From a virus (taxonomy: Duplodnaviria; Caudoviricetes): a stretch of DNA of 40,635 nt. The stretch covers positions 1 through 40,635 of IMG/VR virus record IMGVR_UViG_3300032330_000963, one strand, 5' to 3'. Numbering within the stretch: position 1 is the stretch's first letter; the number at the start of each line of letters is the position of its first letter. The notes under the pieces were generated by a model. It had not been told where the DNA came from, did not search any database, and saw only the letters and a program-made list of their open reading frames with translations. A program made the translations under genes and the position numbers. Shown one piece after another: positions 10,271 to 26,108 of this stretch.

Positions 10271-11731
10271 TTATCCGATTTCGTAGAAAAGATTGGTTTG
10301 CGGCTGAACCAGGTGCAGATTCTGTTTTGCCCGCGTCATTCCTACGTAAAACACCCGAGTTTCGTCATCAGGGTATTGCTGCATGTACTTGTACGACCTG
10401 GCTGCCATGTCAGTCAGCAAGAGTACGTTGTCTGCTTCTCCACCCTTCACTGCATGAATGGTGTTGATCTTGATCCTTGGTTCGCCGATCAACGACTCAC
10501 CTTGGCGTCTGGCTGAGATGTAGTATTCCCGCTCAGCTGACGGTATCTTGATCAATCGCTCGTGCCAGATTCCTGGTTCAAGCTTCAGTTCCTGCAGTTC
10601 GTATATTCTTTCTTTGTCGGTTCTCTTTCTGATTCCCATGAACCGATAGATCAATCTTACCTCATCTCCTGTTGCCGTCTTACCGGCACATAAGCGAGTC
10701 CACGCAATTATTGCTTTGAGACTATCGTTCTCCAGGGGCGAATGCTTCAGGCTTTGGAATGGGTAACCATTGCGCAGGCAAATGTCCTCTAGTCCTTTAT
10801 TGAGATAGGAATTACGGCTAAGGAGCAGCCACTGTCCTTTGGACAGGTCGACTTCTTCACTGTCAAAATGCCAGTTAACGCTACCTGGTACGTCTGCTGG
10901 CTTGAATCGCTTCGGTACTCTTCCCGGTATACGTGAGAGGAGATTGGTTGCCATTCGATGCACAGCGATGGGGACGCGATAAGACTGATCGAGGACAATA
11001 CGGCGTCCGGGTAAATGAATAAGTCTCTCAACATCAGCTCCGGCCCATCGATAGATAGCCTGATCGTCGTCGCCTGCAACATACCTGTCCTCCACTTTCT
11101 CTGTTAGCTTCTCCACGAAGTCCCACTGCAGCGCAGACAAGTCTTGCGCTTCATCCACAAACACGGCGTCTAGCTTTGGCGACATACCTACCTTCAACCA
11201 TTGCTCAAGCAAGTCAGTGAAGTCCATGAGCTTGTGGATCTTCTTGTAACTAGCCAGGGTCCTTGATACACGATCAAGTTCACCCCAGTCTATCTCATCA
11301 TCACCACATTCTTCAAAGACCTTGCGCAATGGAACCCGCATGATACGAGCAAGATTGTCCAGGAAGAAATACCTATCGCCCAAAGGCATTCCCTGTATCA
11401 CGCCATCCTCTGTGTTAGAGTATCCACTGACCTCAATGCCTAGCTTCTCACCAAGTTCCTTGTAGTTCGTGCGCTGCAGCATGGCACTGGGTTTCATACC
11501 CAACTGCAAGAAAGCAAGACTATGAATGGTACGGAAGTAAGGCATGTCGTCCTTGGTAAAACCAAATCGCTCCGCAGCTCGGGACCGTGCCTCATTCGCC
11601 GCCTTTTTGGTAAATGCAATGTACCCGATACGCTCTGGCTTCACCCCCTTCTCCAAGCGGTCTTCAATGAACCGCATCCCTGCAGTCGTTTTGCCTGTCC
11701 CTGGCGGCCCAAAGATAATTGTCCACGTCAA
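10271..11731 (-). CDS. UvrD/Rep-like SF1 DNA helicase
   Basis: Motifs GPPGTGKTT, VDEAQD, GDDDQAIY, QSYR, TIHAVKGGE, YVGMTRAK. TTG start overlaps the primase stop. Confidence 0.92.
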   Translation of the reverse strand: MTWTIIFGPPGTGKTTAGMRFIEDRLEKGVKPERIGYIAFTKKAANEARSRAAERFGFTKDDMPYFRTIHSLAFLQLGMKPSAMLQRTNYKELGEKLGIEVSGYSNTEDGVIQGMPLGDRYFFLDNLARIMRVPLRKVFEECGDDEIDWGELDRVSRTLASYKKIHKLMDFTDLLEQWLKVGMSPKLDAVFVDEAQDLSALQWDFVEKLTEKVEDRYVAGDDDQAIYRWAGADVERLIHLPGRRIVLDQSYRVPIAVHRMATNLLSRIPGRVPKRFKPADVPGSVNWHFDSEEVDLSKGQWLLLSRNSYLNKGLEDICLRNGYPFQSLKHSPLENDSLKAIIAWTRLCAGKTATGDEVRLIYRFMGIRKRTDKERIYELQELKLEPGIWHERLIKIPSAEREYYISARRQGESLIGEPRIKINTIHAVKGGEADNVLLLTDMAARSYKYMQQYPDDETRVFYVGMTRAKQNLHLVQPQTNLFYEIG

Positions 11732-13215
11732 AAGATCTCTCCACTCTCGCCTAAGTCAGGAGTATCAAAGTCACCATGATGCTTCTCAAACTCTTCGACT
11801 GCCCACAGGTTTACGCCCTTGCCCTTCAAATTAAAGAAGTGATGTTCAGCTCCGCCTTCACGCAGCACTGACGTGACTTGGTGGACCTTGTAATCTCTGA
11901 AGTGATGACGATCTAGGAACGCCATTAAGTCTGCCATCCTGAAATAGTGTTTGCCACCATCGGTCCATGGCTTACCAAGCAAGATCTCTTCCTTGGTCTT
12001 AGCTTGCACACGGCCTGTACAGAATCTCTCGACGTACTCGAACAACTGACCTACTGGTGAAGCATCAGGTGGTGCCTCAATGACAGTGAGATTCTCAAGC
12101 AGGTGATTGACAAGTTTGGTCCATGCAATATCATTCATCTTGCCTGGCAGCACGTTCAATCGTTCCATGCACTTGCGCTGGAACCTGCGTTGGTTGTGCA
12201 GATCGTCTGTATCTAGTTCGAGACGACCCCCACCATCCACGTCCAAGAACCAAATTGGAGGGTTAGTATTGAACTTCGTGAGACTGTGAACAGCAGGCAT
12301 ATCAGAGTTAGTGCCAACACCATGTTTACGAAGTTTGCAAACAGCAACATTGCAGTAAGGAGCGATGGGAGGTTTACTACAAGTATATTGGTACTCTTTT
12401 CGTCTGGCTGATTTGATGACACCTTGAACCTCGCTTGATGATAGTGGTGGATCCATAAGTTGAACGTTGAAGCTCTCAAGTTCAGACTCCCAATTGTCAG
12501 GGCTTTTCTTACGGCAGTAGACTGCGATGTTGAACAAGCCGTTGTTCCTGGTTCCCTGAGGAAAACCCTTGGTACCAAGATGCTGCAAGCAAGGAGGACC
12601 GTCTTCAAAGCCAGCCTTGACTGCAATGGTTAGTGATTCGAGTTGCTTGGCAGTGAAGCGGTTCTCAAGGACCTTTTGAACGAAGACCTCTGCTGCCATG
12701 CCTTGGCACCAACGCGTGTCGCCGAAATAAGGCATGTTGATCCATTGACCAATGTCTCCACGATCCGCGAGGATTTTGGTTTGCTTCGGAAAAATTTCGC
12801 AGCCGCCATAACCCATGTAAGCTGCAAGGTCTTTCAACTTCTGCTGCATGAGACCAGCTTCTACCCATTCGCTTGTGAACAGGTAGAGATGGATACCACC
12901 TGACTTGCTTGCACAAGGAAACAGGGGTACCTTCAATTCTTGTATTGCTGCATTGATCTTAGGTAGGTCAATGCTTCCATCGTACGTGTCGATGTCAATG
13001 GCACCAAACTTACACATGGACTCGTCGTTGATTGGAATAACGCCAAGACCTGTCTTACCTTCGAGGTGTTGCTGCCACAATTCCTTGGTTACCGGTTCAC
13101 GAACAGTGGTAGCCTTGCCAGTCAACTTGTTGTCTTGGCGGCTTCCCTTGATTGCATAGGTTCCATGAGCGCGCAGCAAGCCCTCGAAAATCTCCATGAA
13201 ATTTTCTACTAGCAT
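11728..13215 (-). CDS. Archaeo-eukaryotic-type primase with PriCT-like domain
   Basis: AEP motifs GAIDID and SKSGGIHLY; PriCT-like GTRNNGLF...PPLSSSEV. Confidence 0.8.
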   Translation of the reverse strand: MLVENFMEIFEGLLRAHGTYAIKGSRQDNKLTGKATTVREPVTKELWQQHLEGKTGLGVIPINDESMCKFGAIDIDTYDGSIDLPKINAAIQELKVPLFPCASKSGGIHLYLFTSEWVEAGLMQQKLKDLAAYMGYGGCEIFPKQTKILADRGDIGQWINMPYFGDTRWCQGMAAEVFVQKVLENRFTAKQLESLTIAVKAGFEDGPPCLQHLGTKGFPQGTRNNGLFNIAVYCRKKSPDNWESELESFNVQLMDPPLSSSEVQGVIKSARRKEYQYTCSKPPIAPYCNVAVCKLRKHGVGTNSDMPAVHSLTKFNTNPPIWFLDVDGGGRLELDTDDLHNQRRFQRKCMERLNVLPGKMNDIAWTKLVNHLLENLTVIEAPPDASPVGQLFEYVERFCTGRVQAKTKEEILLGKPWTDGGKHYFRMADLMAFLDRHHFRDYKVHQVTSVLREGGAEHHFFNLKGKGVNLWAVEEFEKHHGDFDTPDLGESGEIF

Positions 13216-13223
13216 GCAATGAA

Positions 13224-13244
13224 CCGGGGGCTGTTAACCCCCGG
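13224..13244 (-). terminator. GC-rich hairpin after the ssb gene (weak terminator or processing site)
   Basis: CCGGGGG-ctgttaa-CCCCCGG, with only a short U tail on the minus strand. Confidence 0.45.
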
Positions 13245-13252
13245 CCTCCTGG

Positions 13253-14002
13253 TTAGAAGTGGTTGGACGACTCGGTGTGATCTTGATCAGGAGCTGCAGT
13301 GCGTACAAGACCGCTGCCAACTTGCTGTGCAAAGTCGCGAGCTGCTTGATACAGACCTGGCTCAGTGACCTGACCAACAATGTCAATGGTCCAGCCCATC
13401 CACGCGCCCTTATCGTTCTGTTCACCAACAGACCCGAGCTTGTACATGTGACTGAAGCGAGCTGGTGTGACCATGCCTGTAGGACCCTTGACCTTCAGGT
13501 TATTCATCAAGCTATTCCAACGACGATTCTTCTTGAGCTGTGTGCTGCTCATGGTGATCAAACCAGGTTCCATGACACCAGTGTCGAGCTCAACGCGCAG
13601 CACGAAGTGGTACGCAGTCTCGACAAGGATGTTGCCTGATGGAGTCGTCAACTTACCGTTGACGTTCTTCGCATCAGTGACTACCGCGCTAGTAATCGAG
13701 TGTTGGCCAACCAAGCCGCCACCCTGTTCACGAGGTTTCCATTCAACGAACTCACGCTTGTACGCGCAAGGAATAACCACGATGTCTTTGAAGACCTCTT
13801 CGGTTACAGTGTTGAAGATGTTACCGGCCTTTGCGTTCTGCAAAGTATCCAGTTGAGGTGAAAGCTTTTGCAAGATGTTGAAGAATGGAATAGCCATATC
13901 TTGGCTAGTCATTCCCTCCATACCCATACCAGCATCTGCTGCAAAGTCAATCACTGCAAGGGCGCCACCCTGCTTCTTTTCAGCTACTTCGTTTTTCGCC
14001 AT
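13253..14002 (-). CDS. Putative ssDNA-binding protein
   Basis: Position in the replication module, REFVEWKPREQGGGLVG motif, acidic tail ending in F. Start MAKNEV with AGAAAGGA RBS. Confidence 0.6.
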   Translation of the reverse strand: MAKNEVAEKKQGGALAVIDFAADAGMGMEGMTSQDMAIPFFNILQKLSPQLDTLQNAKAGNIFNTVTEEVFKDIVVIPCAYKREFVEWKPREQGGGLVGQHSITSAVVTDAKNVNGKLTTPSGNILVETAYHFVLRVELDTGVMEPGLITMSSTQLKKNRRWNSLMNNLKVKGPTGMVTPARFSHMYKLGSVGEQNDKGAWMGWTIDIVGQVTEPGLYQAARDFAQQVGSGLVRTAAPDQDHTESSNHF

Positions 14003-14008
14003 GATCAA

Positions 14009-14542
14009 TTATCCTTTCTTGATACTTGCTTTTTGCCCGATATAAATACCCAACAGATCAAAGGGCAGGTTCTGACCTGTCTCTACCTGTTCACGCACAA
14101 ACGCTTTGAACGTCATTGGGTGAACTCCGGTCTTGTCAGTGTAAGACGTACCGTTGTCACGCAAGAAGACTTTGAAATCCTCCGCACGGTTGTCTTCACC
14201 TTTTCCAAAGCTGACTGTCACGTCGTTCTTGATCAAGTCACCATGACCATTGTCGCGTAACCAAGCCATTGCTTCGTCGTATTTCTCTTTGGGTGGATTA
14301 GCCTGGTAGTACGGCTTGACTGTTACCTTGCTGCCATCCAGCAGTTTGATCTCAGACAAACCGCACTCAGCCAAAGCTTCTGGTAGATCCTTCTCAGCAA
14401 CCTGAGTCAGAGCTTCCTTCTTCTCTTTGAGTTGTGCTTCAAGGTCTTCAACCTCTTTCTCAAGCACGAGCTGCCGATTGGCTAACTCAGCTACCACCGT
14501 CAGGCTTTCATCTGACGCAAAGCTGTCTTCAGTAGTCATCAC
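14009..14542 (-). CDS. Conserved replication-module hypothetical protein
   Basis: Coiled coil, then AWLRDNGHGDLIK and VHPMTFKAFVRE; coupled to its neighbours. Confidence 0.65.
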   Translation of the reverse strand: MMTTEDSFASDESLTVVAELANRQLVLEKEVEDLEAQLKEKKEALTQVAEKDLPEALAECGLSEIKLLDGSKVTVKPYYQANPPKEKYDEAMAWLRDNGHGDLIKNDVTVSFGKGEDNRAEDFKVFLRDNGTSYTDKTGVHPMTFKAFVREQVETGQNLPFDLLGIYIGQKASIKKG

Positions 14543-14849
14543 TTCTCCTCATTAAATCGAATTCAACTACGTAATACCGCATCTCTTGCCGATCCCATTT
14601 GAGCAACTTCATGCGCCCATTGTTCATCATGCAGGCTACGGCTCCGGCTGCAGCAATGGCTGCAGGATCGCCGACCATGAGCAAGTAATCCTCGTCCGTG
14701 AACCGGGCGAGACCACGCTTTAGTCTGGCTGCTGTAGGTCCGGAGGAAAACGCAACATTACCCGGCGGCAACAACACTTGTAGGTTGCCAAACTTTTCTG
14801 CGGGCAGTAGGTTTATTCCTCGAACTTCTTGAACGACGTACACCGTCAT
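14529..14849 (-). CDS. Hypothetical protein
   Basis: Strong RBS AGAAAGGAGAA; DYLLMVGDP...LKWDRQ. Confidence 0.7.
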   Translation of the reverse strand: MTVYVVQEVRGINLLPAEKFGNLQVLLPPGNVAFSSGPTAARLKRGLARFTDEDYLLMVGDPAAIAAAGAVACMMNNGRMKLLKWDRQEMRYYVVEFDLMRRSDDY

Positions 14850-14895
14850 CTTTTCTCCTTTCTGATATTGACTATATCACACTATTGCCAATAAG

Positions 14896-15312
14896 CTAAC
14901 TGTGATAGATTATATCCGCGACTGTTTCCCAAATCTTTTTATCACCTGATTGCAGCATCCAACAGGAACGAATCTTGCTGATGTGAAGTTTGACCACCCC
15001 TTTCTTTGTTGTCGCTTCGATCTTGTCTGAGATCGACACCAGTTCTGCTCCAGTGAAAAGCAAAATCATTTCGTCGTACTTGACTAGTACAAATACCCGT
15101 CCATTCTCGACAGCTCGCCTGGTCATGAAGACCACTTGAGCTGCACGAAAATAGATGTAGTGTCCCTTGGCTACCTTGAGTTCGATCCACGCTTCCTTGC
15201 CTTGCCAGCAAGCGTTAACGTCAGGTGTTCCTACGCCAGCGGTGTTCTCAATGCGGACCAAGTGCCCGGGTAAACGGGCCTTGACCTGTAGCCAGAAGTC
15301 ACTCTCTGTCAT
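14896..15312 (-). CDS. PD-(D/E)xK nuclease (VRR-NUC/Holliday junction resolvase-like)
   Basis: MTES, RIEN...GTPDV...WIELK and downstream Q. Confidence 0.8.
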   Translation of the reverse strand: MTESDFWLQVKARLPGHLVRIENTAGVGTPDVNACWQGKEAWIELKVAKGHYIYFRAAQVVFMTRRAVENGRVFVLVKYDEMILLFTGAELVSISDKIEATTKKGVVKLHISKIRSCWMLQSGDKKIWETVADIIYHS

Positions 15313-15640
15313 AGTCAGCGTCGAGGTTTACGGGTATAGGACCTTGCATAGCCAAGCAGTCTCCCCACACCCGTGAATAGGTGGTAGTCAGGGATGGATC
15401 AGATGCATCCTTGAAGTTCGCGTAGTTGATGTCATACACTTCCTTGACCAGGGTCTTGGCTACCTCTTCGCGAGGCAACACCATGCGCCAATGGTAGTCA
15501 GCATACGGCGTGTGCTGAAACTCCCGCAATGGGAATAGTTCAGTTAGATGTTCACGCCTGCGGGCGCGTACACACAACAAGTTCCGGTCTTCGCGATGCT
15601 CGACAATACTGAGCATGCCTCTTGTGGTAAAGATCCACAT
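15299..15640 (-). CDS. Hypothetical protein
   Basis: MWIFTTRGMLSIV...INYANFK; RBS AAAGGAG. Confidence 0.7.
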   Translation of the reverse strand: MWIFTTRGMLSIVEHREDRNLLCVRARRREHLTELFPLREFQHTPYADYHWRMVLPREEVAKTLVKEVYDINYANFKDASDPSLTTTYSRVWGDCLAMQGPIPVNLDADYDRE

Positions 15641-15651
15641 GTCATTCTCCT

Positions 15652-17520
15652 TTATTTTGATTCACCCCAAGTCGGACCCATCTCTAAGTCCACCTTGATT
15701 GGAACGTTTATCTTAACACAGTTCTCCATGATCTCCTTGATTCTTTCGCCGTGTTTTTTATCACGGACCGAGAAGCACAGTTCATCGTGGACCTGTATGT
15801 GTGCAAGTTCTCCCTCCTTGTAGAGGTCAACCATTGCTTTCTTGGTCATGTCAGCAGCACCGCCTTGAATCAGGGCATTCAATGCCTTGTGAGTCATGGA
15901 CCTACGCAGCGGACGATCTGCCCAAATTTTTTGCGCCTGATCGAGAGTCAACGGATTTTCTCTGTTAGGGTAGACGTTGCGACTGTCTGCCGGTTCCCAA
16001 AGATTGAAGTGCCGCTTGCGACCTAGCAAGGTCTTGATCCACCCCTTGTCCGATACTGACTGGCTGCATCGTTGACTGAGCTGCCTGACAAACGGAACAC
16101 GGTCATGGTACTGCTCGAACAGGGGTTTGGCGTCCTCAATAGGGACCCCTAGTTCTTGCGAAAGCTTAAAGATGCCCATACCATAGAACATACCCAGATT
16201 GATGGTCTTGGCATGCTTTCTGGTGATCCCTGCCATGTCTGCAACCATTTGATGGAAGTCGGTGTCGCCTGTATACTGAGCAACGGCATCACTTGCGCCC
16301 TTCAAACCGAGAAGATCCGCATAATGGACCAAAACCCTGGGTTCTTGCTGGCTGTAGTCGCAGCTAGCCCACTCCATTCCTTCGTCTGGTAGGAATAGAC
16401 CACGGATCATCGGACCCCAATGCTCGTCACGGGCAGGAACCTGCTGCAAGTTCGGCATGGAACTGCTGAACCTACCAGACCTGGTACCTGACTCGTCTTT
16501 GCGCAAGGCGTGGAACTGACAATGGATACGACCGCTGTGTTCCATCTTGAGGACCATGCCTTCAATGAAGTCACGACGCATTTTGTTGATGCGCCTGTAC
16601 TCAGCTGCCTTCTTAGCTAGTGGATGCTCATGAGCAGCTAACCAATCGCCGGTAAAGCTTGGGTTGCCTTTGCCTGTTCTTGGGTACCAGACTTTGAGCT
16701 TGTCGAAAGCTTTTCCAAGGTCGTCACTTGACCACACGTCGATCGCGTGACCAGCAACATCTCTGAGTTCTCCCAAGATCCGTGCCTCATCTCGCAGACA
16801 CTGGTCATTGATCTGCTCGGCTCGATCGACATCCACGCGGACGCCTCTAAACCGCATGTCGAGCATGATAGGTACAAGCGCAGACTCGAGTTCGAAGACG
16901 TCCCAAAGATCCTCTTCGTGAAGGATTCGCTTTTGCTGTTCCCATATACGAAGCGGCAGGGCTGCGTCTGCTTCGGCGTAGGGACCAACGTACCTGGCGG
17001 GGAGTCGCCACAATCCTGATTTCGGATCCACTCCATAAGCAGCAGCAGCTTGGCGTAGCAGTGACTCATCTTTGTCTTCTCCCAAATACTTCTTGGACAG
17101 GGCTGATAGGCTATAGCTTACTTGGTTTTCGTCGATGAGCGGTTCCGCGATCTGAATATCCCACACAGGACCAGCGACAGACACGCCTTCCGCCCTAAGC
17201 CATTCAAGATCGTATATGAGATTAGCCCCAACTTTAGGTTGATCTGTCTTAAGAACCTTCTCAACATAAGCGAGTACCTGAGCCTTGTCGAGATTATCGC
17301 CACCTTCATGCGCAATCGGTAGGTAAACAGTTTCATTTCCATCCGAAAGACTAATCCCGACAACTTGCCCATCATACCTGACTCCCCCTGGTCCCCGATC
17401 CATCAGATGCGGGTCCCTCGTTTCGCAGTCCAAAGAGATCGCCTTGGCCTGGCTGAAGTCGGGCAGTTCTACCGGTGGGCGCCATGCTGAGTTCGGCGTA
17501 AACATTGGCAATTGATCCAT
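15652..17520 (-). CDS. polA: DNA polymerase, family A, with 3'-5' exonuclease (about 622 aa)
   Basis: ExoI DCET, ExoIII YAEAD, SGRFSS..PNLQQ, motif A DYSQQEPR, motif B AKTINLGMFYGMG, motif C QVHDE. Start reassigned to MDQLPMF (17520) behind AAAGGAGA. Confidence 0.95.
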   Translation of the reverse strand: MDQLPMFTPNSAWRPPVELPDFSQAKAISLDCETRDPHLMDRGPGGVRYDGQVVGISLSDGNETVYLPIAHEGGDNLDKAQVLAYVEKVLKTDQPKVGANLIYDLEWLRAEGVSVAGPVWDIQIAEPLIDENQVSYSLSALSKKYLGEDKDESLLRQAAAAYGVDPKSGLWRLPARYVGPYAEADAALPLRIWEQQKRILHEEDLWDVFELESALVPIMLDMRFRGVRVDVDRAEQINDQCLRDEARILGELRDVAGHAIDVWSSDDLGKAFDKLKVWYPRTGKGNPSFTGDWLAAHEHPLAKKAAEYRRINKMRRDFIEGMVLKMEHSGRIHCQFHALRKDESGTRSGRFSSSMPNLQQVPARDEHWGPMIRGLFLPDEGMEWASCDYSQQEPRVLVHYADLLGLKGASDAVAQYTGDTDFHQMVADMAGITRKHAKTINLGMFYGMGIFKLSQELGVPIEDAKPLFEQYHDRVPFVRQLSQRCSQSVSDKGWIKTLLGRKRHFNLWEPADSRNVYPNRENPLTLDQAQKIWADRPLRRSMTHKALNALIQGGAADMTKKAMVDLYKEGELAHIQVHDELCFSVRDKKHGERIKEIMENCVKINVPIKVDLEMGPTWGESK

Positions 17521-17947
17521 GATGTATCCATTCTCCTTTCCAAAGGTTTCTAGCTGCTGCATGCGGGTATTCCTCAAGGAACACTATGCGCTTGCAGCCC
17601 GTATTCATAAACAGCTTGATGCACGTGATGCAAGGACTTGCCGTCACGTAAGCCGTCTCTATTTCTTTCGCGTCCCTACATTGAAGGAGCGCGTTCTGTT
17701 CCGCGTGGATCGCCTCACATAGATCGAGCCCCCGTCCAGACGGAAGACCAGCACCAGGACAAGCAGTATCAATACAATGGGCAACGCCGCGAGCAACACC
17801 GTTATAGCCAGTAGCCAAAACATGCTTGTGCCTATCCACGAGCACGCAACCGACACGACGTCTTCGACATGTTGCACGAAGGGAAACGAGCGCAGCCATC
17901 GCCAGAAAGTATTCATCGCTACTTGGTCTCCAAAATTCCTGATCCAT
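17372..17947 (-). CDS. dCMP deaminase (cytidine deaminase superfamily)
   Basis: RATCRRRRVGCV, TGYNG, HAEQNA and SPCITC Zn motifs. Start reassigned to MDQEFWRP (17947) behind GGGAG. Confidence 0.9.
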   Translation of the reverse strand: MDQEFWRPSSDEYFLAMAALVSLRATCRRRRVGCVLVDRHKHVLATGYNGVARGVAHCIDTACPGAGLPSGRGLDLCEAIHAEQNALLQCRDAKEIETAYVTASPCITCIKLFMNTGCKRIVFLEEYPHAAARNLWKGEWIHHGSIANVYAELSMAPTGRTARLQPGQGDLFGLRNEGPASDGSGTRGSQV

Positions 17948-18671
17948 TTGCTTTCTCCCACAACCAATCAATAAGGTCCTGTCCCTTCTCAAACCAAGGA
18001 ATGGTAGGTGCAGGCAGTTCGTCGAATTCACCGTCAGCAATCAACTCAGCAGCAATCCAGTTAGACTCATACAAGTGCATGCTGCCTGCTTGAAGAACCA
18101 GTGTGCCTAGTTCAGGCTTGTTCTTCAGAAGCGTGATGACAAACCTTGCCAGCATGCTGAAGTTGAATACGTCGTAAGGCCAACCTAACCACAAGTCACT
18201 GCTGCGCATGGTGTCAACCACATGCAGCCTGTTTCCTCTGATCAGGAACTGAATCGAGACCGTGCAAGGAATATCCTTACTAGGACGTGGATTCGGTCGC
18301 CAAATAGTCAGCACAGCTTGACGTGAATCAGGGTCACTGTTCAACGTGTCAGCAACAAAGTGAAGTTGGTCAATGATCTGAGGACCATAAGCCCCGTGAA
18401 AGAAGTAACCGTCATCGCTGAAGTTGGCAATGGCTGCACTGTATGGCTTGATCGTGTTGACACGATTGTCGCCACTGAGAATCCACGCTGCTTCAGCTGC
18501 CATGAACCGGTAACCAAGGTTGCGGTCCTTCACGGTGACAACAGGATCCTCCATGTTGATGGCAGTCTGGTAGCCAATGCGCTCCTTGATCTTCAAGCCA
18601 CGTGGTTGTGACGAGATCCCTTGAAGCACATCTGACATGGCCTTCTGCCACGCAAGGTTAGTGTATTGCAT
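17919..18671 (-). CDS. Thymidylate synthase-family enzyme, dCMP (hydroxy)methylase-type
   Basis: AAEAAWILSG, DPDSRQAV, DIPCT (catalytic Cys), MRSSDLWLGWPYD, GSMHLY. Asp replaces the TS specificity Asn. Confidence 0.85.
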   Translation of the reverse strand: MQYTNLAWQKAMSDVLQGISSQPRGLKIKERIGYQTAINMEDPVVTVKDRNLGYRFMAAEAAWILSGDNRVNTIKPYSAAIANFSDDGYFFHGAYGPQIIDQLHFVADTLNSDPDSRQAVLTIWRPNPRPSKDIPCTVSIQFLIRGNRLHVVDTMRSSDLWLGWPYDVFNFSMLARFVITLLKNKPELGTLVLQAGSMHLYESNWIAAELIADGEFDELPAPTIPWFEKGQDLIDWLWEKANGSGILETK

Positions 18672-19650
18672 GTCTTAATATCTCCCGCATAGTGTCAGTA
18701 CCGCCTTCAAACCGCTTCACGTAGGCTGGATGCTTGACTTGTTCAAAAATAGGCACGCCTGCCTCTCTTGCAGCGATGCTGCCAACAGCAATGACCTTGA
18801 TCTCTGGCTTCACGTCAACAACTTGCTTGATCAAACGGTTTGCTAGTCCGTCGTGATCACGCGCATTTGCCCACATGAATAGTTCTTCACGAGCAGGAAC
18901 TTGCTGCAAAGCCTCTGACAGGTAAAGACTTGAATGACCGTAGTCATACCAAGGCCAGTACAAGTTGTTGTACTTTGGATTGACCTGCTCACCGACAAAC
19001 AGGTACTGCGCTTCTTTCAAGTGTCCAAGCATGTTGGGGTTGTCCATTGAATTAGGCAACTGTGAAGCAACGCGTTCAGCTGACCGTGCTGCCACTAAGT
19101 CAGTGAAGTAGTCCATGATGTGGCCGTACTTCTCAATCGTGTAGTAGACGTGGTCCTCACGGTTTTTCACTCCACCAGTCCTGACAAGCAGGTCTGCGTA
19201 GTTCTCATTGGCTTCATGGCAAGCATCACCTGACCACAGCTTCAGATACCGCTTGGCAACTCCAAGAACAGAGTCATACATCTCTTCACGTTCGGTCTTC
19301 AGTTTGTCAAACCGCTTCTCGTACTCAACCAAGTCGTCAGGCAAGCAGTACACATAGATGGCTCCGTGCTTGCGAGCAACTCGATCCATCATGCGACCCA
19401 TCTGACTCCACTTGCTGCCGCCTCGAAACTCAGCAGCATACAAGGCTTCACTTGGCCACCACCTGTCGATGATGACTGGACGCTTGTGACTCTTGCGAAT
19501 CGCCCACCTGATGGCTGCCGTATGGTACTCGAACATGTGATCGGGCCAACGGTAGGTCAGGTGAATGTAGTCAGCACCAAGTCTCTTGGCCATGTACTGA
19601 CCAAGAGTTGTCTTGCCTACTCCATCAGGACCTTCGAGGATAATGATCAT
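18658..19650 (-). CDS. dNMP (thymidylate-like) kinase fused to a C-terminal UDG-like domain
   Basis: N-terminal LEGPDGVGKTT and IIDRWWPSE..Y. C-terminal YLFVGEQ, WANA, KVIAVG..A and KHPAYVKR match family 4/5 UDG fold motifs. Confidence 0.8.
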   Translation of the reverse strand: MIIILEGPDGVGKTTLGQYMAKRLGADYIHLTYRWPDHMFEYHTAAIRWAIRKSHKRPVIIDRWWPSEALYAAEFRGGSKWSQMGRMMDRVARKHGAIYVYCLPDDLVEYEKRFDKLKTEREEMYDSVLGVAKRYLKLWSGDACHEANENYADLLVRTGGVKNREDHVYYTIEKYGHIMDYFTDLVAARSAERVASQLPNSMDNPNMLGHLKEAQYLFVGEQVNPKYNNLYWPWYDYGHSSLYLSEALQQVPAREELFMWANARDHDGLANRLIKQVVDVKPEIKVIAVGSIAAREAGVPIFEQVKHPAYVKRFEGGTDTMREILRHAIH

Positions 19651-19651
19651 C

Positions 19652-20011
19652 TCACTCTCCTGCTAGGTCCGATAGATCTGGAGCGGTCCAGCCGTCGGGT
19701 TTGATGACGTCATAGCCCTCGCTGCGTTTAGACGGGCCACGTGTCTTTGCCATATTAGCGGCATGGACTCGGTTCCACGCCTCTTGGAAGTCAAATCCTT
19801 GTAGGTATGCAGTGCCCATGACCACGTAGCAGAGGTCCACCAAAGCGTCGAGTTCGTCAGCTTTCGTTTGCGCCACAATGAGTTCGTCGAGTTCCTCGAA
19901 GATGAATCCAATTCTGAAAGAGGCAAGTTCCTTAGGGAGCTCACGTGGTTCGCCTTCGTAAGTAAGTCCGAATTTTTCATGGAAGTCCTTGATGTCTTGC
20001 CACTGGCTCAT
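19652..20011 (-). CDS. MazG-like / all-alpha NTP pyrophosphohydrolase (dUTPase/dCTPase-like)
   Basis: FEELDEL...DELDALVDLCYV, VHAANMAK, IKPDGW. ATGA overlap with the upstream gene; RBS AAGGAG. Confidence 0.85.
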   Translation of the reverse strand: MSQWQDIKDFHEKFGLTYEGEPRELPKELASFRIGFIFEELDELIVAQTKADELDALVDLCYVVMGTAYLQGFDFQEAWNRVHAANMAKTRGPSKRSEGYDVIKPDGWTAPDLSDLAGE

Positions 20012-20844
20012 GCTAACTCCTTCCACTTCTCACTGCTGCCCCAACGACCTTCAACATCGCGCAAATCAGGGAACATGCGGGGACCACCTGGATTCCACTT
20101 CAGCTGCCACAAGCAATTGCGACTAAACTGAGGATACAGTGGTGCAAAGATCGTGGCCAAGTAATTAGAGTCGTAGTATTCGCGCATCTTGTCGAAGACC
20201 TTCTTCTCCTCTGGCTGCAACTCGTCTTTGTAATCGCGCATCGAGGCGAACGTGCCCCAATGACCTTCGACACGCCAGCCGATGTCTTCAAGCAAAGCAC
20301 CAAAGGCAAGGTAAGTCATCTCATTGACGTGGTTGGCGGCGGCCCCTACATCAGGATCCCAGCATGGTGTTGACAAGAAGCAAGTACCTTCTGGTTCGAG
20401 CAACTTACCAAAGTTGGCCAGCAAACGACGGCAGTGCTCTGGCTCAATGTGTTCGGCTACCTCAAAGCAGACGATCGTATTGGGAACCTCTTGCAACTGG
20501 TCCTGAGTAAGGACAGCAGCATCGCACTCGCTGAGCAACTGAGCAGGCTTCCAAGTAGACTTGGCGAACTGATCAGGCATAGACAACTTGGCTACGTCAG
20601 CAGCCGCATAGAACTGTGGACCCAGGCGTGACGAGTGCATGAGTTTGGCCAACGGCATTTCCTTGCCGCAACCCACATCAAGAATCCTGGCCGTCTTGTA
20701 GCGACCTGCCTGATGCAGCCACTTGACGACGTGCGTCCAGCGAAGGCAATGGGCAATGTAATCGCGGTGCAAGAAACCGCGTTCTTCAGCGTTATCGATC
20801 GACAGGAATGTCTTATCGATGGTCTTTCCTCTTTCGTTAGCCAT
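20008..20844 (-). CDS. Class I SAM-dependent methyltransferase (small-molecule type)
   Basis: ILDVGCG motif I, CFEVAEHI, LLEPEGTCFLSTP. No DPPY/NPPY or PC/ENV DNA-MTase motifs. Confidence 0.85.
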   Translation of the reverse strand: MANERGKTIDKTFLSIDNAEERGFLHRDYIAHCLRWTHVVKWLHQAGRYKTARILDVGCGKEMPLAKLMHSSRLGPQFYAAADVAKLSMPDQFAKSTWKPAQLLSECDAAVLTQDQLQEVPNTIVCFEVAEHIEPEHCRRLLANFGKLLEPEGTCFLSTPCWDPDVGAAANHVNEMTYLAFGALLEDIGWRVEGHWGTFASMRDYKDELQPEEKKVFDKMREYYDSNYLATIFAPLYPQFSRNCLWQLKWNPGGPRMFPDLRDVEGRWGSSEKWKELA

Positions 20845-20870
20845 GGCTATTTTCCTTTCTAAGGGTTGGT

Positions 20871-20893
20871 CGGGGCTTTTTAAGTCGGCCCCG
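20871..20893. terminator. Intergenic hairpin upstream of the modification operon
   Basis: CGGGGC...GCCCCG stem; no clear U tract. Confidence 0.3.
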
Positions 20894-20906
20894 GAACGAC
20901 TGTGGG

Positions 20907-21134
20907 TTATCGTAATACTGATCTGATGGCTTCAATGCTGCCTGTTTTAATAAGGCTGCCCTGATAATAGCTGATCAGACGTTGAGCTTTCTGACGACTC
21001 TTGAGGCGTTGGCCGACAAGCGTCAAGAGCTCTGTCTTGCTGATTTCGCCGGCTTCCTCAATGATCGCCAGAATGGCCTTTGCCTGTTTAGCCAGTGCCT
21101 TGTCAGGTATCTGGACAAATCGGTAAGTGACCAT
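20907..21134 (-). CDS. Small basic protein, putative winged-helix DNA-binding
   Basis: LAKQAKAILAIIEEAGEISKTELL...RLISYY; RBS AAGGAG. Confidence 0.6.
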   Translation of the reverse strand: MVTYRFVQIPDKALAKQAKAILAIIEEAGEISKTELLTLVGQRLKSRQKAQRLISYYQGSLIKTGSIEAIRSVLR

Positions 21135-21148
21135 CTGGTTCTCCTTGT

Positions 21149-22126
21149 TTAGGCAGCCTGCGCGAACTCGACTGCCAAGTTTAAGGCCTTCCGCTTAAGT
21201 GCGGCACGCGGGCCAAACCACGCAGACTGCAAGGAAGCATCGCGGTCACGACCTGCCTTGTGGTCAACGTAATAGGTCACAGCATTGAGAGCAGACCACC
21301 ATGAACCTTCGGACATGGCGGCTCCTGGCTGCGTATGGATGCATTGGAACACGTCTTCAGCAGAACGGCTCCACAAGGACCGATCGATCTCGGACTCTTG
21401 CGCCAGTGCAGGACTGAACAGCGTGGCAATGAACTTGGAGACGGCAGCCTCGTCGTACTGGACCTTGGCCAAGAACTCGGACGTCTGTTTGAAGGCATCG
21501 AGCTGGTGGGTTGCCAAGCCAAGCGCATTCTCTGCCTTCGCAATGATGTCGTCGTCAAACTCATGGATGTGCGGCATGGTGAAGCGTTCACCAGTCTGAC
21601 CAAGTGCCTGAGTCAACGTGTTGTTGCAGACCACTCGGATCGGCGTGAACATGATGTTCAAAGACTTGCCCCAGACGTGCGGCTGACTGATCAAGAGATA
21701 ACCCTTGACTTCGTCATCACCAGGCAAAGCAAAGCCCTTATTCATTGCAGCAAGGCCCCAGACTTGGCGGCCTCCATCCAATGAACCTGCTGTTTCCATC
21801 TTCATAGCACCTGCCTTGACGAACTTATCGAAGAACGTGAAGACCTGCTTGTTTTGGATGGGCAGATAGTTCTTGCCACAAGGACCAAGAACCTTGTTGT
21901 CCGAATCACGGACCAACATGGCGTAGTCACTGACGCCAAGGGTTCCTTCGGTTGGGTTGACTTCACCAGCTGCTTGAGTGGTGAAGATAGGACGACGGCT
22001 GACGGTCCAATCAAGACCTGCAGCTGTGACCATCTCCTCTGGTGTAAGGCTATCGGCGACCTGTGTGCCGAGACCGTGCCAGGGGACTGCGTTGGCGTAA
22101 GCCATGGTTTCTACTAAGTGGGCCAT
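21149..22126 (-). CDS. DUF932 family phage/plasmid protein (TIGR03299-like)
   Basis: VPWHGLG, AAGLDWTV, METAGSLDGGRQVW, TPIRVVCNNTL, NAVTYYVDH. Confidence 0.88.
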   Translation of the reverse strand: MAHLVETMAYANAVPWHGLGTQVADSLTPEEMVTAAGLDWTVSRRPIFTTQAAGEVNPTEGTLGVSDYAMLVRDSDNKVLGPCGKNYLPIQNKQVFTFFDKFVKAGAMKMETAGSLDGGRQVWGLAAMNKGFALPGDDEVKGYLLISQPHVWGKSLNIMFTPIRVVCNNTLTQALGQTGERFTMPHIHEFDDDIIAKAENALGLATHQLDAFKQTSEFLAKVQYDEAAVSKFIATLFSPALAQESEIDRSLWSRSAEDVFQCIHTQPGAAMSEGSWWSALNAVTYYVDHKAGRDRDASLQSAWFGPRAALKRKALNLAVEFAQAA

Positions 22127-22162
22127 AAAATTCTCCTTTCTAGAGGTGTGTTGGTAAGGCCA

Positions 22163-22408
22163 TTATACACGGAAAATTGCGGATCTAAACAAAAAAATTG
22201 CCATCAAAATCAGGCAAACCGCGGCCGGAATTGCGAACACGGTTGCCAGGACTTCGAGGTTAGTCGGGTCTCTTGAACCTAGGATCTTGCGCCGAATACC
22301 CGGTGTTCTCTTCAAAACACTGATCATCCAGCGCGCAGCCAACCCAAAGGCCAACATACACAAAGGCAAGAACCAGACATACACCAACGAATGCTGCCGC
22401 ATACTCAA
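22163..22408 (-). CDS. Small two-TM membrane protein
   Basis: Two hydrophobic helices; start overlaps the upstream stop. Confidence 0.55.
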   Translation of the reverse strand: MSMRQHSLVYVWFLPLCMLAFGLAARWMISVLKRTPGIRRKILGSRDPTNLEVLATVFAIPAAVCLILMAIFLFRSAIFRV

Positions 22409-22896
22409 GCCACTTCTTCATGAGGATTCTCCAATTTCAAGATTTTGAGACCGATCATCTTCGGGCGATAATACTGGAAGATGCGCCAAGGATCTTGCTT
22501 CGTGTTGACCTTGACAGCAGCTTGCAGCTCAGACTCCGTGTAGACGTCTTGCTCGAGCTGGTCAATGATCTGACGAGCTTGAGGAGCCAGTTGACGACGG
22601 TACTTGTCATAAGTGTCGAAGTCGAAACGGTAGATCCTGTTTGCCAGTTGACCGGACGGACGACCACGAACCTTGATGATCTTCGACAGATCCTTAGGAG
22701 GATCCACGAAGGTCAATGCTGGCTTTTGTTCCGCACGTTTCTGCTCTAGCATCGGCAGGATTCTCTTGGCAGCAGCACCCTTGTCCGAGAACTTAGGTGC
22801 GTGCGTCTTGGTCATCTTGGAATACAGGCTGCAAAGATCTTGCATTGAATAAACCCGCAACTCTTCGACTGTCTTGCAATCTTCTATATTATTCAT
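22405..22896 (-). CDS. Early hypothetical protein with C-terminal wHTH-like domain
   Basis: RGRPS motif, then LAPQARQII...QDPWRIFQYYRPKMI. Confidence 0.65.
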   Translation of the reverse strand: MNNIEDCKTVEELRVYSMQDLCSLYSKMTKTHAPKFSDKGAAAKRILPMLEQKRAEQKPALTFVDPPKDLSKIIKVRGRPSGQLANRIYRFDFDTYDKYRRQLAPQARQIIDQLEQDVYTESELQAAVKVNTKQDPWRIFQYYRPKMIGLKILKLENPHEEVA

Positions 22897-23089
22897 CTAA
22901 CATTCTCCACAAATCAAGTTCAGTAGGCCTGGAACCGAAGTCCTCGAGCAAAAACACGGGCGATCCGCCTGAAGGGCAGACAACTCCTCGAATGTGCGAG
23001 ACAAACGGATGCGCAGGATCAATGGCTAACATCACCTCCTTGTTGGGAGGATAATCGGCTAGGATCTCTAGCAAGTCACTTACTTTCAT
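22889..23089 (-). CDS. Small early hypothetical protein
   Basis: MKVSDLLEILADYPPNKEV; strong RBS TAGAAAGGAGAA. Confidence 0.7.
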   Translation of the reverse strand: MKVSDLLEILADYPPNKEVMLAIDPAHPFVSHIRGVVCPSGGSPVFLLEDFGSRPTELDLWRMLDE

Positions 23090-23122
23090 CGAACGTTCTC
23101 CTTTCTAAGTGTTCGGAATTAC

Positions 23123-23151
23123 ATCGTACCATGGACCATGGACTGCGTAAA
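23123..23151 (-). promoter_or_regulatory. sigma70-like leftward promoter
   Basis: Minus strand TTTACG-17 nt-TACGAT with extended TG. The -35 sits inside the palindrome GGACTG-cgtaaa-CAGTCC (23140-23157). Confidence 0.5.
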
Positions 23152-23197
23152 CAGTCCGAGAAATATATTCCCGCAGCAAAGTCCAATAAATTTTATG

Positions 23198-23250
23198 CCC
23201 CTCTAGACTATGCAAAATCAATAAGTTATTGGTTTATTGTATTGATTGGC
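23198..23250 (-). repeat. Left copy of an approximately 50-bp inverted repeat
   Basis: Reverse complement of 23221-23250 matches 24416-24445 at 28/30 nt; weaker similarity extends to 23198/24467. Confidence 0.85.
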
Positions 23251-23278
23251 CAAAGGGACATAAATTGAGCTGCAATTT

Positions 23279-23647
23279 TTATTTTTTTCCTATACTAATA
23301 GAGCCAATTGGAAGCCCTGATCCCCACTTGCGTGCGCTTGATCCGACCTTGGCTTCCACCCAATCCACGTTCTCGTGACTGTGTCCACCAATATGCCACT
23401 CGTACTCACCAAGAGGAGTCTCCCCCATCTTGTAGTCGTAGATCGTCACGAACAGTCCGAAGTCTGCCATGATCTTCCACTCGCACGTGACTTTGTCGCC
23501 CTCGTAATCAAATGGCCCGTAAGTTGGCGGTCCGAAGGTTTCACACAAGGTCTTGAAGTCTGTCTTGATATATCCCTTCAGACTTCCGCCATTGAACTCC
23601 TGCAGATGATCCTGATCACCTGCCTTCACCACTTCGAAATCACTCAT
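23279..23647 (-). CDS. Early hypothetical protein
   Basis: SLKGYI...FGPPT...KVTCEW...TIYDYK...EWHIGG; GGGAGG RBS. Confidence 0.7.
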   Translation of the reverse strand: MSDFEVVKAGDQDHLQEFNGGSLKGYIKTDFKTLCETFGPPTYGPFDYEGDKVTCEWKIMADFGLFVTIYDYKMGETPLGEYEWHIGGHSHENVDWVEAKVGSSARKWGSGLPIGSISIGKK

Positions 23648-23843
23648 TGGAACCTCCCATTCTTTCTTTTAAGTAGCGATGCAGCAGACCGTTGATGAAG
23701 CCATCAATCAAGTCCATTCCATCGTCGTCGTTCAGAATCTCACTGACCTGCTGGTTCCATTCATAGAACTTCTCTATGCTGGAATCCAGTAGATCCTTGA
23801 GATCTTCATAAGCTGCATCCACATCTATCTTTGAAACATCCAT
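23640..23843 (-). CDS. Small acidic protein, first gene of the leftward arm
   Basis: 67 aa with 17 D/E versus 6 K/R; strong RBS TAGAAAGGAGAA. Confidence 0.7.
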   Translation of the reverse strand: MDVSKIDVDAAYEDLKDLLDSSIEKFYEWNQQVSEILNDDDGMDLIDGFINGLLHRYLKERMGGSNE

Positions 23844-23887
23844 CTCGATTCTCCTTTCTAATCCGGACCAATTATGTCCGTAGTCCT

Positions 23888-23915
23888 ATTATATGGACAT
23901 TATCCGAAAAGTACA
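23888..23915 (-). promoter_or_regulatory. sigma70-like leftward (early) promoter
   Basis: Minus strand TGTACT-16 nt-TATAAT, flanked by GGAC/GTCC palindromes. Confidence 0.5.
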
Positions 23916-24415
23916 TACTTTCTTCAATTTATTTTTTGTATTGGACTCTCACTCTCAATCAATAAAACTTATCACCCTTTCGAACTCCTGCTCGATTAGT
24001 CCCAGTTGCTCCTGTTCGTCCTGTTCCGACCTGAACTTGTCCAGACTCTTTCCACCATTTCTCCCACTGATTAAATATCAGGCTTTTTCACCCTCATCCC
24101 TGCCATTTCCATCCATCGACCCTCGCACTTTTGCCGCGATTCGCTGCAATTGCTGCATCGACCTTGGTCCGAGGTTCTTTAAGTTGGTACGAAAGTGCTT
24201 GTTCTATATAGTAATGGACGTCAGAACATGTTTTTTGCCGGCTGCGACCGGGTTCGCGGTCCGGGGGCCCGGGGCGGCAGCGAGCGGCCGCGCCCCTAAA
24301 AGCGCCAGGTCAGTGGTTCTGCGGGGGCGTCGGAAGGTAAATCGGCAAAAATCCGTGCATATTGGGCATAGTATAGGAGAAAAATCAGAATCATCGTGTG
24401 AAAAAGTAAAAAGAT

Positions 24416-24467
24416 GCCAATCAATACAATAAGCCAATAACCTATGATCCTTTGCAAAGTTCAGGGG
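24416..24467 (+). repeat. Right copy of the approximately 50-bp inverted repeat
   Basis: gccaatcaatacaataagccaataacctatgatcctttgcaaagttcagggg. Confidence 0.85.
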
Positions 24468-24472
24468 ATCTA

Positions 24473-24501
24473 TGTACAATCTAGCTAAGTTCATATATTA
24501 T
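24473..24501 (+). promoter_or_regulatory. sigma70-like rightward promoter for the packaging/structural arm
   Basis: TGTACA-17 nt-TATTAT, followed by AGGAGG RBS and terS. Confidence 0.5.
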
Positions 24502-24523
24502 CTGAGGTTAGGAGGCCCTTCTT

Positions 24524-24838
24524 ATGGCACAAATAGGCGGTAAGCGCGAAGGCGCAGGTCGACCTGCCGGTTCTAAGAACAAGAGGACCGAGGAGATCGA
24601 AGAAAAATTGGCGGCACTGAATTGCGATCCCATTGAAGGGATGGCAATGATTGCTGCTGACCCAACAGCAAGTCAGGAATTGAAGTTCCAGGCCTTTAAG
24701 GAACTGGCCCAGTATGTCGCTCCAAAGCGCAAGGCTGTCGAGATGGAGATCGAGGGCAGCGGTTCATTCAACATTAACGTCGTACGGTTTAGCGACGTAG
24801 TAAAGGCTGACGATGGCGGAGATAACGGTACCACTTGA
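24524..24838 (+). CDS. terS: Terminase small subunit (putative)
   Basis: GGKREGAGRPAGSKNK N-terminus, ELAQYVAPK, directly upstream of TerL. Confidence 0.7.
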   Translation: MAQIGGKREGAGRPAGSKNKRTEEIEEKLAALNCDPIEGMAMIAADPTASQELKFQAFKELAQYVAPKRKAVEMEIEGSGSFNINVVRFSDVVKADDGGDNGTT

Positions 24839-26108
24839 TTGGGCACCCAGACCTTATCAGTTTCCTCTTTGGAAATTCCTAGAGGATGGCGGCAAACGAG
24901 CCGTCGCAGTTTGGCATCGGCGTGCTGGCAAGGACTTGCTGTCGATCAACTGGTGTGCGGTATCGGCTTTGACCAGGCCAGGTTTGTACTGGCACCTGTT
25001 CCCCACATACAACCAGGGGCGAAAGATTGCTTGGGATGGGATGACTCGCGATGGTCGCAAGTTCATTGACCATTTCCCCAAGGAGATGTGGGAAGCCGTC
25101 AACAACACTGAGATGCGGCTGACGTTAAAGAATGGCTCAATCTATCAGGTGGTGGGTACAGACAATGTCGACAGACTGGTTGGAGCAAATCCAGTCGGGG
25201 TCGTCTTCTCTGAATACTCCCTCCAAGATCCCCGAGCATGGGATTACATTCGTCCCATCTTGGCTGAGAATGGAGGATGGGCACTGTTTATTTATACCGC
25301 TCGAGGTCGAAATCACGGATACGACTTGCTTAATATGGCAAGACGAAATGAACGCTGGTACCAACAAGTCCTAAGCGTGGACGATACCCGAGCCATTAGC
25401 CAGGATGCTGTGGACGAGGAACGCGAATCAGGCATGCCTGAGGAAATGATCCAGCAAGAGTTCTATTGCAGCTTTGACGCGCCTTTAGTCGGTTCATACT
25501 ACGGCTCCGCCATGGCCAAACTCCTAGCCGACGGTAGGTTGACATCGTTACCCTACGAGCCGCGCCTAGAGGTTCACACAGCGTGGGACCTTGGAGTCGG
25601 TGACTCCACTGCAATAGTTTTTTATCAGAAGCACGGACAAGAGATCCGTATAATCGACTACTACGAGAACAGCGGTGAAGGTTTGCCGCACTACGCCAAG
25701 ATCATCAAAGAGAAAGAGTACGTCTATGGAGAACACCTTGCACCTCACGATATACAAGTTCGTGAGCTTGGCAGCGGTAAGTCTCGACTTGAAATTGCCA
25801 GAGAACTTGGAATACGGTTCCGCGTGGTACCAAACCTTAGGATCGACGACGGCATCGAAGCCGTCAGAGCCACCCTACCGAAATGCTGGTTTGATGAAAA
25901 GAAGTGCGCTCACCTCATCGAGTCCTTACGCCAGTACAGAAAAGACTTCGACGAAAAGAACAAGGTCTTCCGAGACAAGCCACTTCACGACTGGACCAGT
26001 CACCCGGCCGACGCGTTCCGGTATATGTCGCTTGGTATCCGCGACCAACTAGATCTAAACGCTAGGAAGCTACCAAGGATGGCAGACATGGAGTACAAGA
26101 TCCTATGA
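24813..26108 (+). CDS. terL: Terminase large subunit
   Basis: WHRRAGKD Walker A, VVFSE Walker B, YTARG coupling motif, nuclease motifs TAWDLG and HPADAFRY. Confidence 0.93.
   Translation: MAEITVPLDWAPRPYQFPLWKFLEDGGKRAVAVWHRRAGKDLLSINWCAVSALTRPGLYWHLFPTYNQGRKIAWDGMTRDGRKFIDHFPKEMWEAVNNTEMRLTLKNGSIYQVVGTDNVDRLVGANPVGVVFSEYSLQDPRAWDYIRPILAENGGWALFIYTARGRNHGYDLLNMARRNERWYQQVLSVDDTRAISQDAVDEERESGMPEEMIQQEFYCSFDAPLVGSYYGSAMAKLLADGRLTSLPYEPRLEVHTAWDLGVGDSTAIVFYQKHGQEIRIIDYYENSGEGLPHYAKIIKEKEYVYGEHLAPHDIQVRELGSGKSRLEIARELGIRFRVVPNLRIDDGIEAVRATLPKCWFDEKKCAHLIESLRQYRKDFDEKNKVFRDKPLHDWTSHPADAFRYMSLGIRDQLDLNARKLPRMADMEYKIL

Follow-up and report, generated by a model that had tools for sequence, protein, structure and literature searches.

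Which modified base, if any, is made by the six-gene cassette on the minus strand of the virus record IMGVR_UViG_3300032330_000963? We analyzed this record over its full length of 40,635 bases (the “window”), a complete podophage record with direct terminal repeats and ~50% G+C. An initial annotation had proposed that the phage DNA carries a C5-modified pyrimidine with an added methyl group derived from S-adenosylmethionine (SAM). The C5-modified pyrimidine is supported by our results and can be narrowed to cytosine, reached via 5-hydroxymethyl-dCMP (5hmdCMP), based on active-site residues, genome-wide loss of restriction sites and published digests of the cultured Stenotrophomonas phage AXL3. 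It is highly probable that cytosine is the base modified in this way. We lean narrowly towards a pathway in which cytosine is replaced by 5-hydroxymethylcytosine (5hmC) before replication and is then capped by the methyltransferase to give 5-methoxymethylcytosine; for the methoxymethyl cap taken by itself, the odds are about even.

The gene set is as first described, in the order methyltransferase, MazG-like, kinase::UDG-like, thymidylate synthase (TS) homolog, dCMP deaminase and PolA, with all six genes on the minus strand. The first gene (20008..20844) encodes a 278 aa class I SAM methyltransferase from a virus-restricted family (PF13489, E 5e-12). It is followed by a 119 aa MazG/PRA-PH-like deoxynucleoside triphosphate (dNTP) pyrophosphohydrolase with a predicted dCTPase role (19652..20011; PF01503, E 1e-13; phrog_671, E 7e-25). 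The third gene encodes a 330 aa fusion (18658..19650; fold matches and phrog_761) of a P-loop deoxynucleoside monophosphate (dNMP) kinase domain (aa 1-192, 19075..19650; phrog_761 thymidylate kinase, E 1e-15, and structural model) and a domain with the uracil-DNA-glycosylase (UDG) fold (aa 193-330, 18658..19074). Next are the 250 aa TS homolog, a predicted 5hmdCMP synthase (17919..18671; PF00303, E 2e-20), a 191 aa dCMP-type zinc deaminase with HAE and PCxxC motifs (17372..17947; PF00383, E 1e-20; phrog_174), and the 622 aa family A DNA polymerase (PolA) with a 3′-5′ exonuclease (15652..17520; PF00476, E 4e-68; PF01612). The junctions also match the initial description: an ATGA overlap, a 1-nt gap, then overlaps of 14, 29 and 149 nt, the last shared by the 3′ tail of the deaminase gene and PolA. 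A promoter and terminator scan of the window found no clear cassette boundary.

A gene-neighborhood survey covered 109 distinct methyltransferase loci that extend at least 5.5 kb downstream. The five-gene order is kept in 70 of them, and thus the arrangement is not due to chance. PolA also comes last in 59 of these 109 loci. The proposed coupling to PolA holds for the window, where PolA ends the cassette, but it is not fixed, as the five genes of AXL3 lie ~5 kb from PolA. Here and below, each viral scan contributed its best 80 matches (of 112, 165, 356 and 232), and the loci are related to each other, so the counts are not independent events.

The TS homolog has the CMP hydroxymethylase MilA as its closest solved relative (E 3e-26, vs. 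~1e-13 for ThyA). In E. coli numbering, its D133, C136, S157, D159 and D167 correspond to positions 143, 146, 167, 169 and 177, and it also has R117. According to published residue rules (PMC13326640; this paper and the others cited are represented by the portions of their text available), N177D is associated with dCMP, L143D/E with hydroxymethylation and D169N with hydroxylation. The window TS combines the catalytic Cys with Asp at 177 and an acidic position 143, as expected of a 5hmdCMP synthase under these rules, and its S157 and R117 are the Ser and Arg that favor dCMP over CMP (PMC5175136), where MilA has A176 and K133. All loci gathered at this stage provided 151 distinct TS cores. The D/C/D/D pattern occurs in 149 of the 149 complete cores, and D is found at 177, and likewise at 169, in 150 of the 150 rows that cover the column. 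The complete cores include 123 with a methyltransferase (the window among them), 3 with a carbamoyltransferase and 23 with neither in view. Many cores were gathered by TS similarity, and the set also holds distant and T4-gp42-like lineages found via the methyltransferase alone. The initial annotation had set one case against its own proposal, a TS that simply converts dUMP to dTMP; this is contradicted by D177, and judging from its active site the TS homolog is unlikely to make dTMP.

Other products of a dCMP-acting TS were considered. The TS could make 5-hydroxy-dCMP, which the methyltransferase would convert to 5-methoxy-deoxycytidine, or it could make 5-methyl-dCMP, as in Xp12 and PaMx74. 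D177 is compatible with any dCMP-modifying TS, the residue rules are correlations, ring hydroxyls are methylated by UbiG, and some deaminases encoded beside such TS genes convert 5-methyl-dCTP to dTTP (bioRxiv 2024.12.05.627091). Moreover, the 5-methylcytosine (5mC) route of Xp12/PaMx74 and the 5-hydroxycytosine route of RB69/DLP3 resemble the window in having a dCMP-acting TS homolog, a kinase and incorporation by polymerase. However, D169N occurs in all tested 5-hydroxycytosine synthases (PMC13326640), so that RB69/DLP3 have N169, whereas the window TS keeps D169. PaMx74, described as a 5mC phage (bioRxiv 2024.12.05.627091), has N143 in its TS and a neighboring dihydrofolate reductase (DHFR) gene (frd); the window has D143, not N143, and no DHFR match in a Pfam scan of its ORFs. 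We regard these products as highly unlikely. The initial suggestion of an O-methylated 5-hydroxy(methyl)cytosine can be divided accordingly: a SAM-derived O-methyl group would fit the gene context and the methyltransferase motif, and the 5-hydroxycytosine form is disfavored because D169 is kept.

The hexamer content of the genome provides a second line of evidence. Only 6 of the 2,080 strand-collapsed hexamers are absent from the window (genome-wide count, positions 1..40635): AATATT, ATTAAT, CATATG, GATATC, TTATAA and TTTAAA. These are exactly the recognition sites of SspI, AseI, NdeI, EcoRV, PsiI and DraI, the only plain 6-bp palindromic cutters that fully cleave the 5hmC-containing DNA of T4gt (PMC7653180, Table S1). 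The absent hexamers were spotted before this table was compared. A Markov model predicts 19.6 occurrences of the six sites, against 0 observed (P 3e-9), and in 500 codon shuffles the sites occurred 39.6 times on average and never fewer than 24 times. For the remaining 54 C-containing palindromes the observed/expected ratio is 0.95, and the four A/T palindromes beyond the six occur 18 times vs. 18.1 expected. In the cassette relative MW202510, the six sites occur 5 times vs. 45.3 expected. For four relatives without an annotated cassette, the ratios were 0.54-0.90 for the six sites and 0.65-0.90 for the others. A fifth such relative, a T-modifying phage, has too few expected sites, and the expectation for AXL3 is only 2.1, too few to test. 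GATATC and CATATG are the first and third most depleted across 124 pooled related cassette loci.

Genes 31-27 of AXL3 encode the methyltransferase, pyrophosphohydrolase, kinase, TS and deaminase in the same order as in the window, with identities of 48% for TS, 30% for the methyltransferase and 26% for the kinase::UDG fusion. AXL3 differs in being a siphophage with PolA elsewhere. PW916, MW202510 and MW202621 were grouped with AXL3 as cassette relatives. Of 37 enzymes tried on AXL3 DNA, 2 cut it, both at A/T-only sites; it resisted the other 35, including those with G/C sites (PMC7504290). The authors did not identify the modification and interpreted the genes as a dTMP supply (PMC7504290). 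We found no match to a glycosyltransferase or deazaguanine-pathway family in the 22 of 65 AXL3 proteins scanned (most of the larger hypotheticals and four annotated proteins). If the authors’ annotation applied to the window, the genes would serve ordinary thymidylate supply from dCMP through dUMP to dTMP, and the DNA would be unmodified. A deaminase, a TS and a kinase do make up the textbook dTTP route. Against this are the Asp at 177 in every covering row and the pattern of lost sites, which fits modified C. In addition, AXL3 has restriction-resistant DNA and carries a separate ThyX, so dTMP can be made without its cassette TS. We find this explanation barely credible.

In T4, 5hmC is produced by the gp56 dCTPase, the gp42 dCMP hydroxymethylase, the gp1 dNMP kinase and the cd deaminase, after which glucosyltransferases act. 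The window follows the same pre-replicative logic. Its TS has the N177D, L143D and D169 signature, with a deaminase alongside, and a dNMP kinase, a dNTP pyrophosphatase and its own DNA polymerase are present, as assigned by family and fold, with substrate choice predicted. It differs from T4 in being a small PolA podophage with a class I methyltransferase and a kinase-fused UDG fold in place of a glycosyltransferase. The initial remark that no glycosyltransferase is visible was borne out, as there was no match among the 48 window ORFs (one a repeat) scanned with Pfam, and the record is complete. The 5-carbamoyloxymethylcytosine system (PMC8670742) is the closest likeness, with TS, PRA-PH/MazG and dCMP deaminase neighbors in the same gene order; the window differs in having the methyltransferase in the first slot and no carbamoyltransferase. 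The system works like the T4 pathway and is most like the carbamoyl system, but it falls in neither class because glycosyl- and carbamoyltransferases are missing.

What, then, does the methyltransferase do? Its model (mean predicted local distance difference test score, pLDDT, 91) is a single class I domain with ChlM (Z 18.7), CmoM (18.6) and HEN1 (16.8) as fold neighbors. Fold neighbors of this class do not fix the chemistry. Pfam matches were to Methyltransf_23 and _12 only, and no DNA-methylase family match (C5 or amino) was found in Pfam or NCBIfam. The only NCBIfam matches were UbiG and Hen1, both below cut-off (Hen1 20.4 vs. 340 bits), and a single-sequence PDB search returned nothing significant. 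A profile built from diverse members of the family did match Hen1 (E 4e-7) and UbiG (E 7.5e-7); its ExxEH aligns to EVIEH of Hen1. An alignment of 152 distinct proteins showed no variation at E128, E131 and H132 (150 of 150 aligned rows) or at H172 and E175 (151 of 151). HEN1 uses E-x-x-E-H together with a His that follows strand 5 to coordinate Mg/Mn for hydroxyl methylation (PMC10781085). The window enzyme resembles HEN1/UbiG in its class I SAM fold and its ExxEH motif, and by position H172 would correspond to the second His after strand 5. It differs in scoring far under both family cut-offs, in its virus-restricted clusters and in its cytosine-modification context. From these residues (E128, E131, H132 and H172) we predict a metal-dependent hydroxyl O-methyltransferase. 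Since the ExxEH motif of HEN1 serves hydroxyl methylation, O-methylation of the 5-hydroxymethyl group is the simplest reading. The protein is acidic (isoelectric point 5.9), which leans weakly towards a small, nucleotide-level substrate.

Another SAM-dependent chemistry on 5hmC would also be consistent with a class I fold, as such folds span many chemistries. This could be N4 methylation or transfer of another SAM-derived group (carboxymethyl or aminocarboxypropyl), perhaps with a partner of the C5-methyltransferase fold in some lineages. Carboxy-SAM is used by phages (PMC12783734), and a C5 DNA-methylase domain is fused to the methyltransferase in two related loci (L213 and L247) and adjoins it in three others (L255, L286 and L308). 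However, the invariant ExxEH motif is common to hydroxyl O-methyltransferases, and no CmoA-like or DNA-methylase match was found in the Pfam scan of the window. We consider such chemistry distinctly unlikely.

The association of the methyltransferase with TS supports a role in base modification. Of 82 distinct loci seeded with the methyltransferase and flanked by at least 3 kb on each side, 78 have a TS; in the same loci we detected MazG in 75, the deaminase in 69, the kinase in 65, the UDG domain in 57 and a carbamoyltransferase in none. In loci L016-L022, a methyltransferase 73% identical to that of the window lies beside a TS only 26% identical, indicating that the link outlasts TS exchange. 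Conversely, among 77 loci seeded with TS and extending 4 kb upstream, 61 contain a methyltransferase and 3 a carbamoyltransferase. In L146/L164, L172, L180 and the cultured phage Xp15, the carbamoyltransferase occupies the methyltransferase slot and is followed by MazG, a kinase-sized gene, TS and the deaminase. The kinase-sized gene has a kinase match in all of these except Xp15, where no family was assigned, and the TS of L146 is ~48-50% identical to that of the window. The two enzymes occur together in 0 of 121 loci, and ORF scans of the window found no carbamoyltransferase beside TS. Carbamoylation of 5hmdCTP and of 5hmC in DNA has been demonstrated for an enzyme of the carbamoyltransferase family (PMC8670742). 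In a quick TS tree (95 rows, many open forks), four carbamoyl-linked TS sit among methyltransferase-linked ones and require three changes, at least two of them forced by strong branches. The tree supports repeated exchange of the predicted methyltransferase and carbamoyltransferase, and the order of events is not given by it. We infer that the two are alternative caps for the same hydroxyl.

Xp15 (L334, 2568-6504), a Xanthomonas phage, encodes the carbamoyltransferase, MazG, TS and deaminase consecutively, and we found no paper linking it with carbamoyloxymethylcytosine in the literature searched.

If the DNA instead contained plain 5hmC, the methyltransferase would act off the base, on released 5-hydroxymethylpyrimidine (bacimethrin-like), on a side nucleotide or on RNA ends (Hen1-like). 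The operon for bacimethrin comprises TS, nucleoside 2-deoxyribosyltransferase, methyltransferase and kinase genes (PMC5627462), and three related loci without the fused UDG domain (L194, L237 and L174) have a deoxyribosyltransferase-like gene after the methyltransferase. EcoRV cleaves 5hmC DNA fully and glucosylated DNA very partially (PMC7653180), so that loss of GATATC fits a small modification, and T7-like relatives retain TS and kinase without the methyltransferase. On the other hand, S157 and R117 of the window TS prefer dCMP, and the CMP-preferring residues of the bacimethrin/mildiomycin pathways (A176 and K133 in MilA) are absent. The Pfam scan of the window found no match to PF05014, the deoxyribosyltransferase family present in the three related loci, nor to thiaminase or Pnkp, the partner of HEN1. 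The Hen1 score far under the cut-off and the alternation of the methyltransferase with a 5hmC-capping enzyme family in one slot also argue against action off the base, which we consider unlikely.

Several observations count against capping to 5-methoxymethylcytosine. TS is not in view in 4 of the 82 well-flanked methyltransferase loci, and 13 of the 77 TS-seeded loci have neither capping enzyme. Carboxyl-O-, N- and C-methyltransferases are among the structural neighbors at similar Z, and the top sequence-profile match is a lysine methyltransferase without the ExxEH motif. The equivalence of H172 to H860 of HEN1 comes from its place after strand 5, as the alignments end at profile position 170. 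The site-loss signal is weak in MW202621 (9 vs. 13.2 expected) and in the 124 pooled loci (0.81 for the six sites vs. 0.92). Shorter sites that are cleavable in T4gt DNA (AATT, TTAA, TCGA, TCNGA and ACNGT, plus ApoI sites) are not depleted in the window. Site loss points to protected cytosines and cannot separate 5hmC from its methylated form.

The UDG-like call had been made without Pfam support and was confirmed by the model of the fusion (pLDDT 94). Residues 193-330 match UdgX (Z 10.6, root-mean-square deviation 3.7, 134 aligned) and the T. maritima family-4 UDG (Z 10.4; Foldseek 1l9g, E 1.8e-4), and residues 1-192 match the dNMP kinases YorR (Z 13.0) and TMK (Z 12.8). N262 and H307-P308 of the UDG-fold domain are conserved; at least 90% of 57 rows share N262 and H307. 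The fused-UDG-profile domain is found in 77 of 113 methyltransferase loci vs. 1 of 17 without the methyltransferase (related rows), and MW202510 has a stand-alone glycosylase-like gene in its place. The initial annotation had let the glycosylase fold, with the methyltransferase, take the place of a glycosyltransferase or amino-acid transferase; repair or sanitization is more likely than modification. The domain may clean up a deaminated form of the modified base that host enzymes may not recognize.

This analysis shows directly the genes and their order, the folds, the residues, the co-occurrence and the loss of sites; enzyme activities are predicted. In the pathway to 5-methoxymethylcytosine, the MazG-like enzyme, a predicted dCTPase by analogy to T4 gp56, would convert dCTP to dCMP, and the TS homolog would hydroxymethylate dCMP with methylene-tetrahydrofolate and water. 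The kinase domain would phosphorylate the modified dNMP for incorporation by PolA, while the deaminase would turn spare dCMP into dUMP, from which the host would make dTMP. The methyltransferase, with SAM and an Mg/Mn site formed by E128, E131, H132 and H172, would methylate the 5-CH2OH group on the nucleotide or on DNA, and the UDG-fold domain would remove a deaminated, uracil-type by-product.

How widespread might such a system be? Methyltransferase relatives number 1,311 among 2,300 candidates, giving a family of at least 1,311 sequence clusters. Nine of the 10 listed Atlas clusters are of viral origin, and the genome collection has 11 methyltransferase loci, nearly all on metagenome-assembled contigs. 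We give an even chance to the broader proposal that a widespread, virus-specific HEN1/UbiG-like enzyme makes 5-methoxymethylcytosine in place of C in many small phages, including AXL3. The enzyme would be a plug-in cap that has been repeatedly swapped with the carbamoyltransferase, hides the hydroxyl read by 5hmC-dependent nucleases and travels with its own UDG-fold repair domain. In the literature searched, which covered few subscription journals, we found neither 5-methoxymethylcytosine as a DNA base nor any paper tying the methyltransferase to a base, and the available text of PMC13326640 has no mention of methyltransferase, methoxy or AXL3. If true, the proposal would extend the set of natural DNA bases by one and bring in a new O-methyltransferase chemistry on DNA or nucleotides. 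It would also account in concrete terms for the restriction resistance of AXL3, a therapy-candidate phage, and, like the carbamoyltransferase before it, a 5hmC-specific SAM enzyme would be a labeling tool in 5hmC sequencing. The match of absent hexamers to 5hmC-cleavable sites also suggests a sequence-only way of spotting cytosine-modified phage genomes.

Among T7-like pelagiphages, HTVC119P (L003, 4499-5783), L131, L139, L155, L156 and L211 have a D143/D177 TS and a kinase with no capping enzyme nearby, and plain 5hmC is predicted for the cultured HTVC119P and HTVC200P. The T7-like marine phage uvMED S28-C10 (L335, 4414-6435) has D177 with a hydrophobic residue near 143 as well as deaminase and kinase genes, and appears from these to carry a 5mC-type cassette.

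The C5 DNA-methylase domains fused to the methyltransferase are at L213:5022-7031 and L247:6921-8840, those adjoining it at L255:8852-9961, L286:8849-9883 and L308:9117-10166, and one lies near TS (L190:5859-7256). The three of these sequences that were inspected have a PPC motif, and the genomes carrying these domains are predicted to lack plain cytosine. The nucleoside 2-deoxyribosyltransferase-like genes are at L194:4265-4885, L237:3135-3815, L174:975-1649 and L179:3-509, all in loci lacking the fused UDG domain; L237, L174 and L179 also have ThyX and an HD-domain gene close by. Variants of the cassette (L226:6815-9707 and L320:9438-10244) have a Nudix hydrolase where MazG otherwise stands, and one has a SAM-synthetase-like gene near the methyltransferase.

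The podophage assignment is based on head-tail connector, capsid and nozzle genes, and the capsid is like that of HTVC010P-type phages. The replication arm encodes an AEP primase, UvrD and SNF2 helicases and Pam3-like genes (Pfam). The closest cultured relatives of PolA include T-modifying YuA/PaMx11-like phages (~42%), and its motif B has Leu at the position that we take to be F762 of E. coli. A DUF932 gene lies upstream of the cassette (21149-22126, minus strand), and a similar gene is upstream in MW202621. A 1,206 aa ORF spans the record ends (37986-40635 on into 1-971, plus strand), among virion genes. An ADP-ribosyltransferase domain (PF03496, E 5e-31) forms its C-terminal part and suggests a putative Alt-like protein injected together with the DNA.

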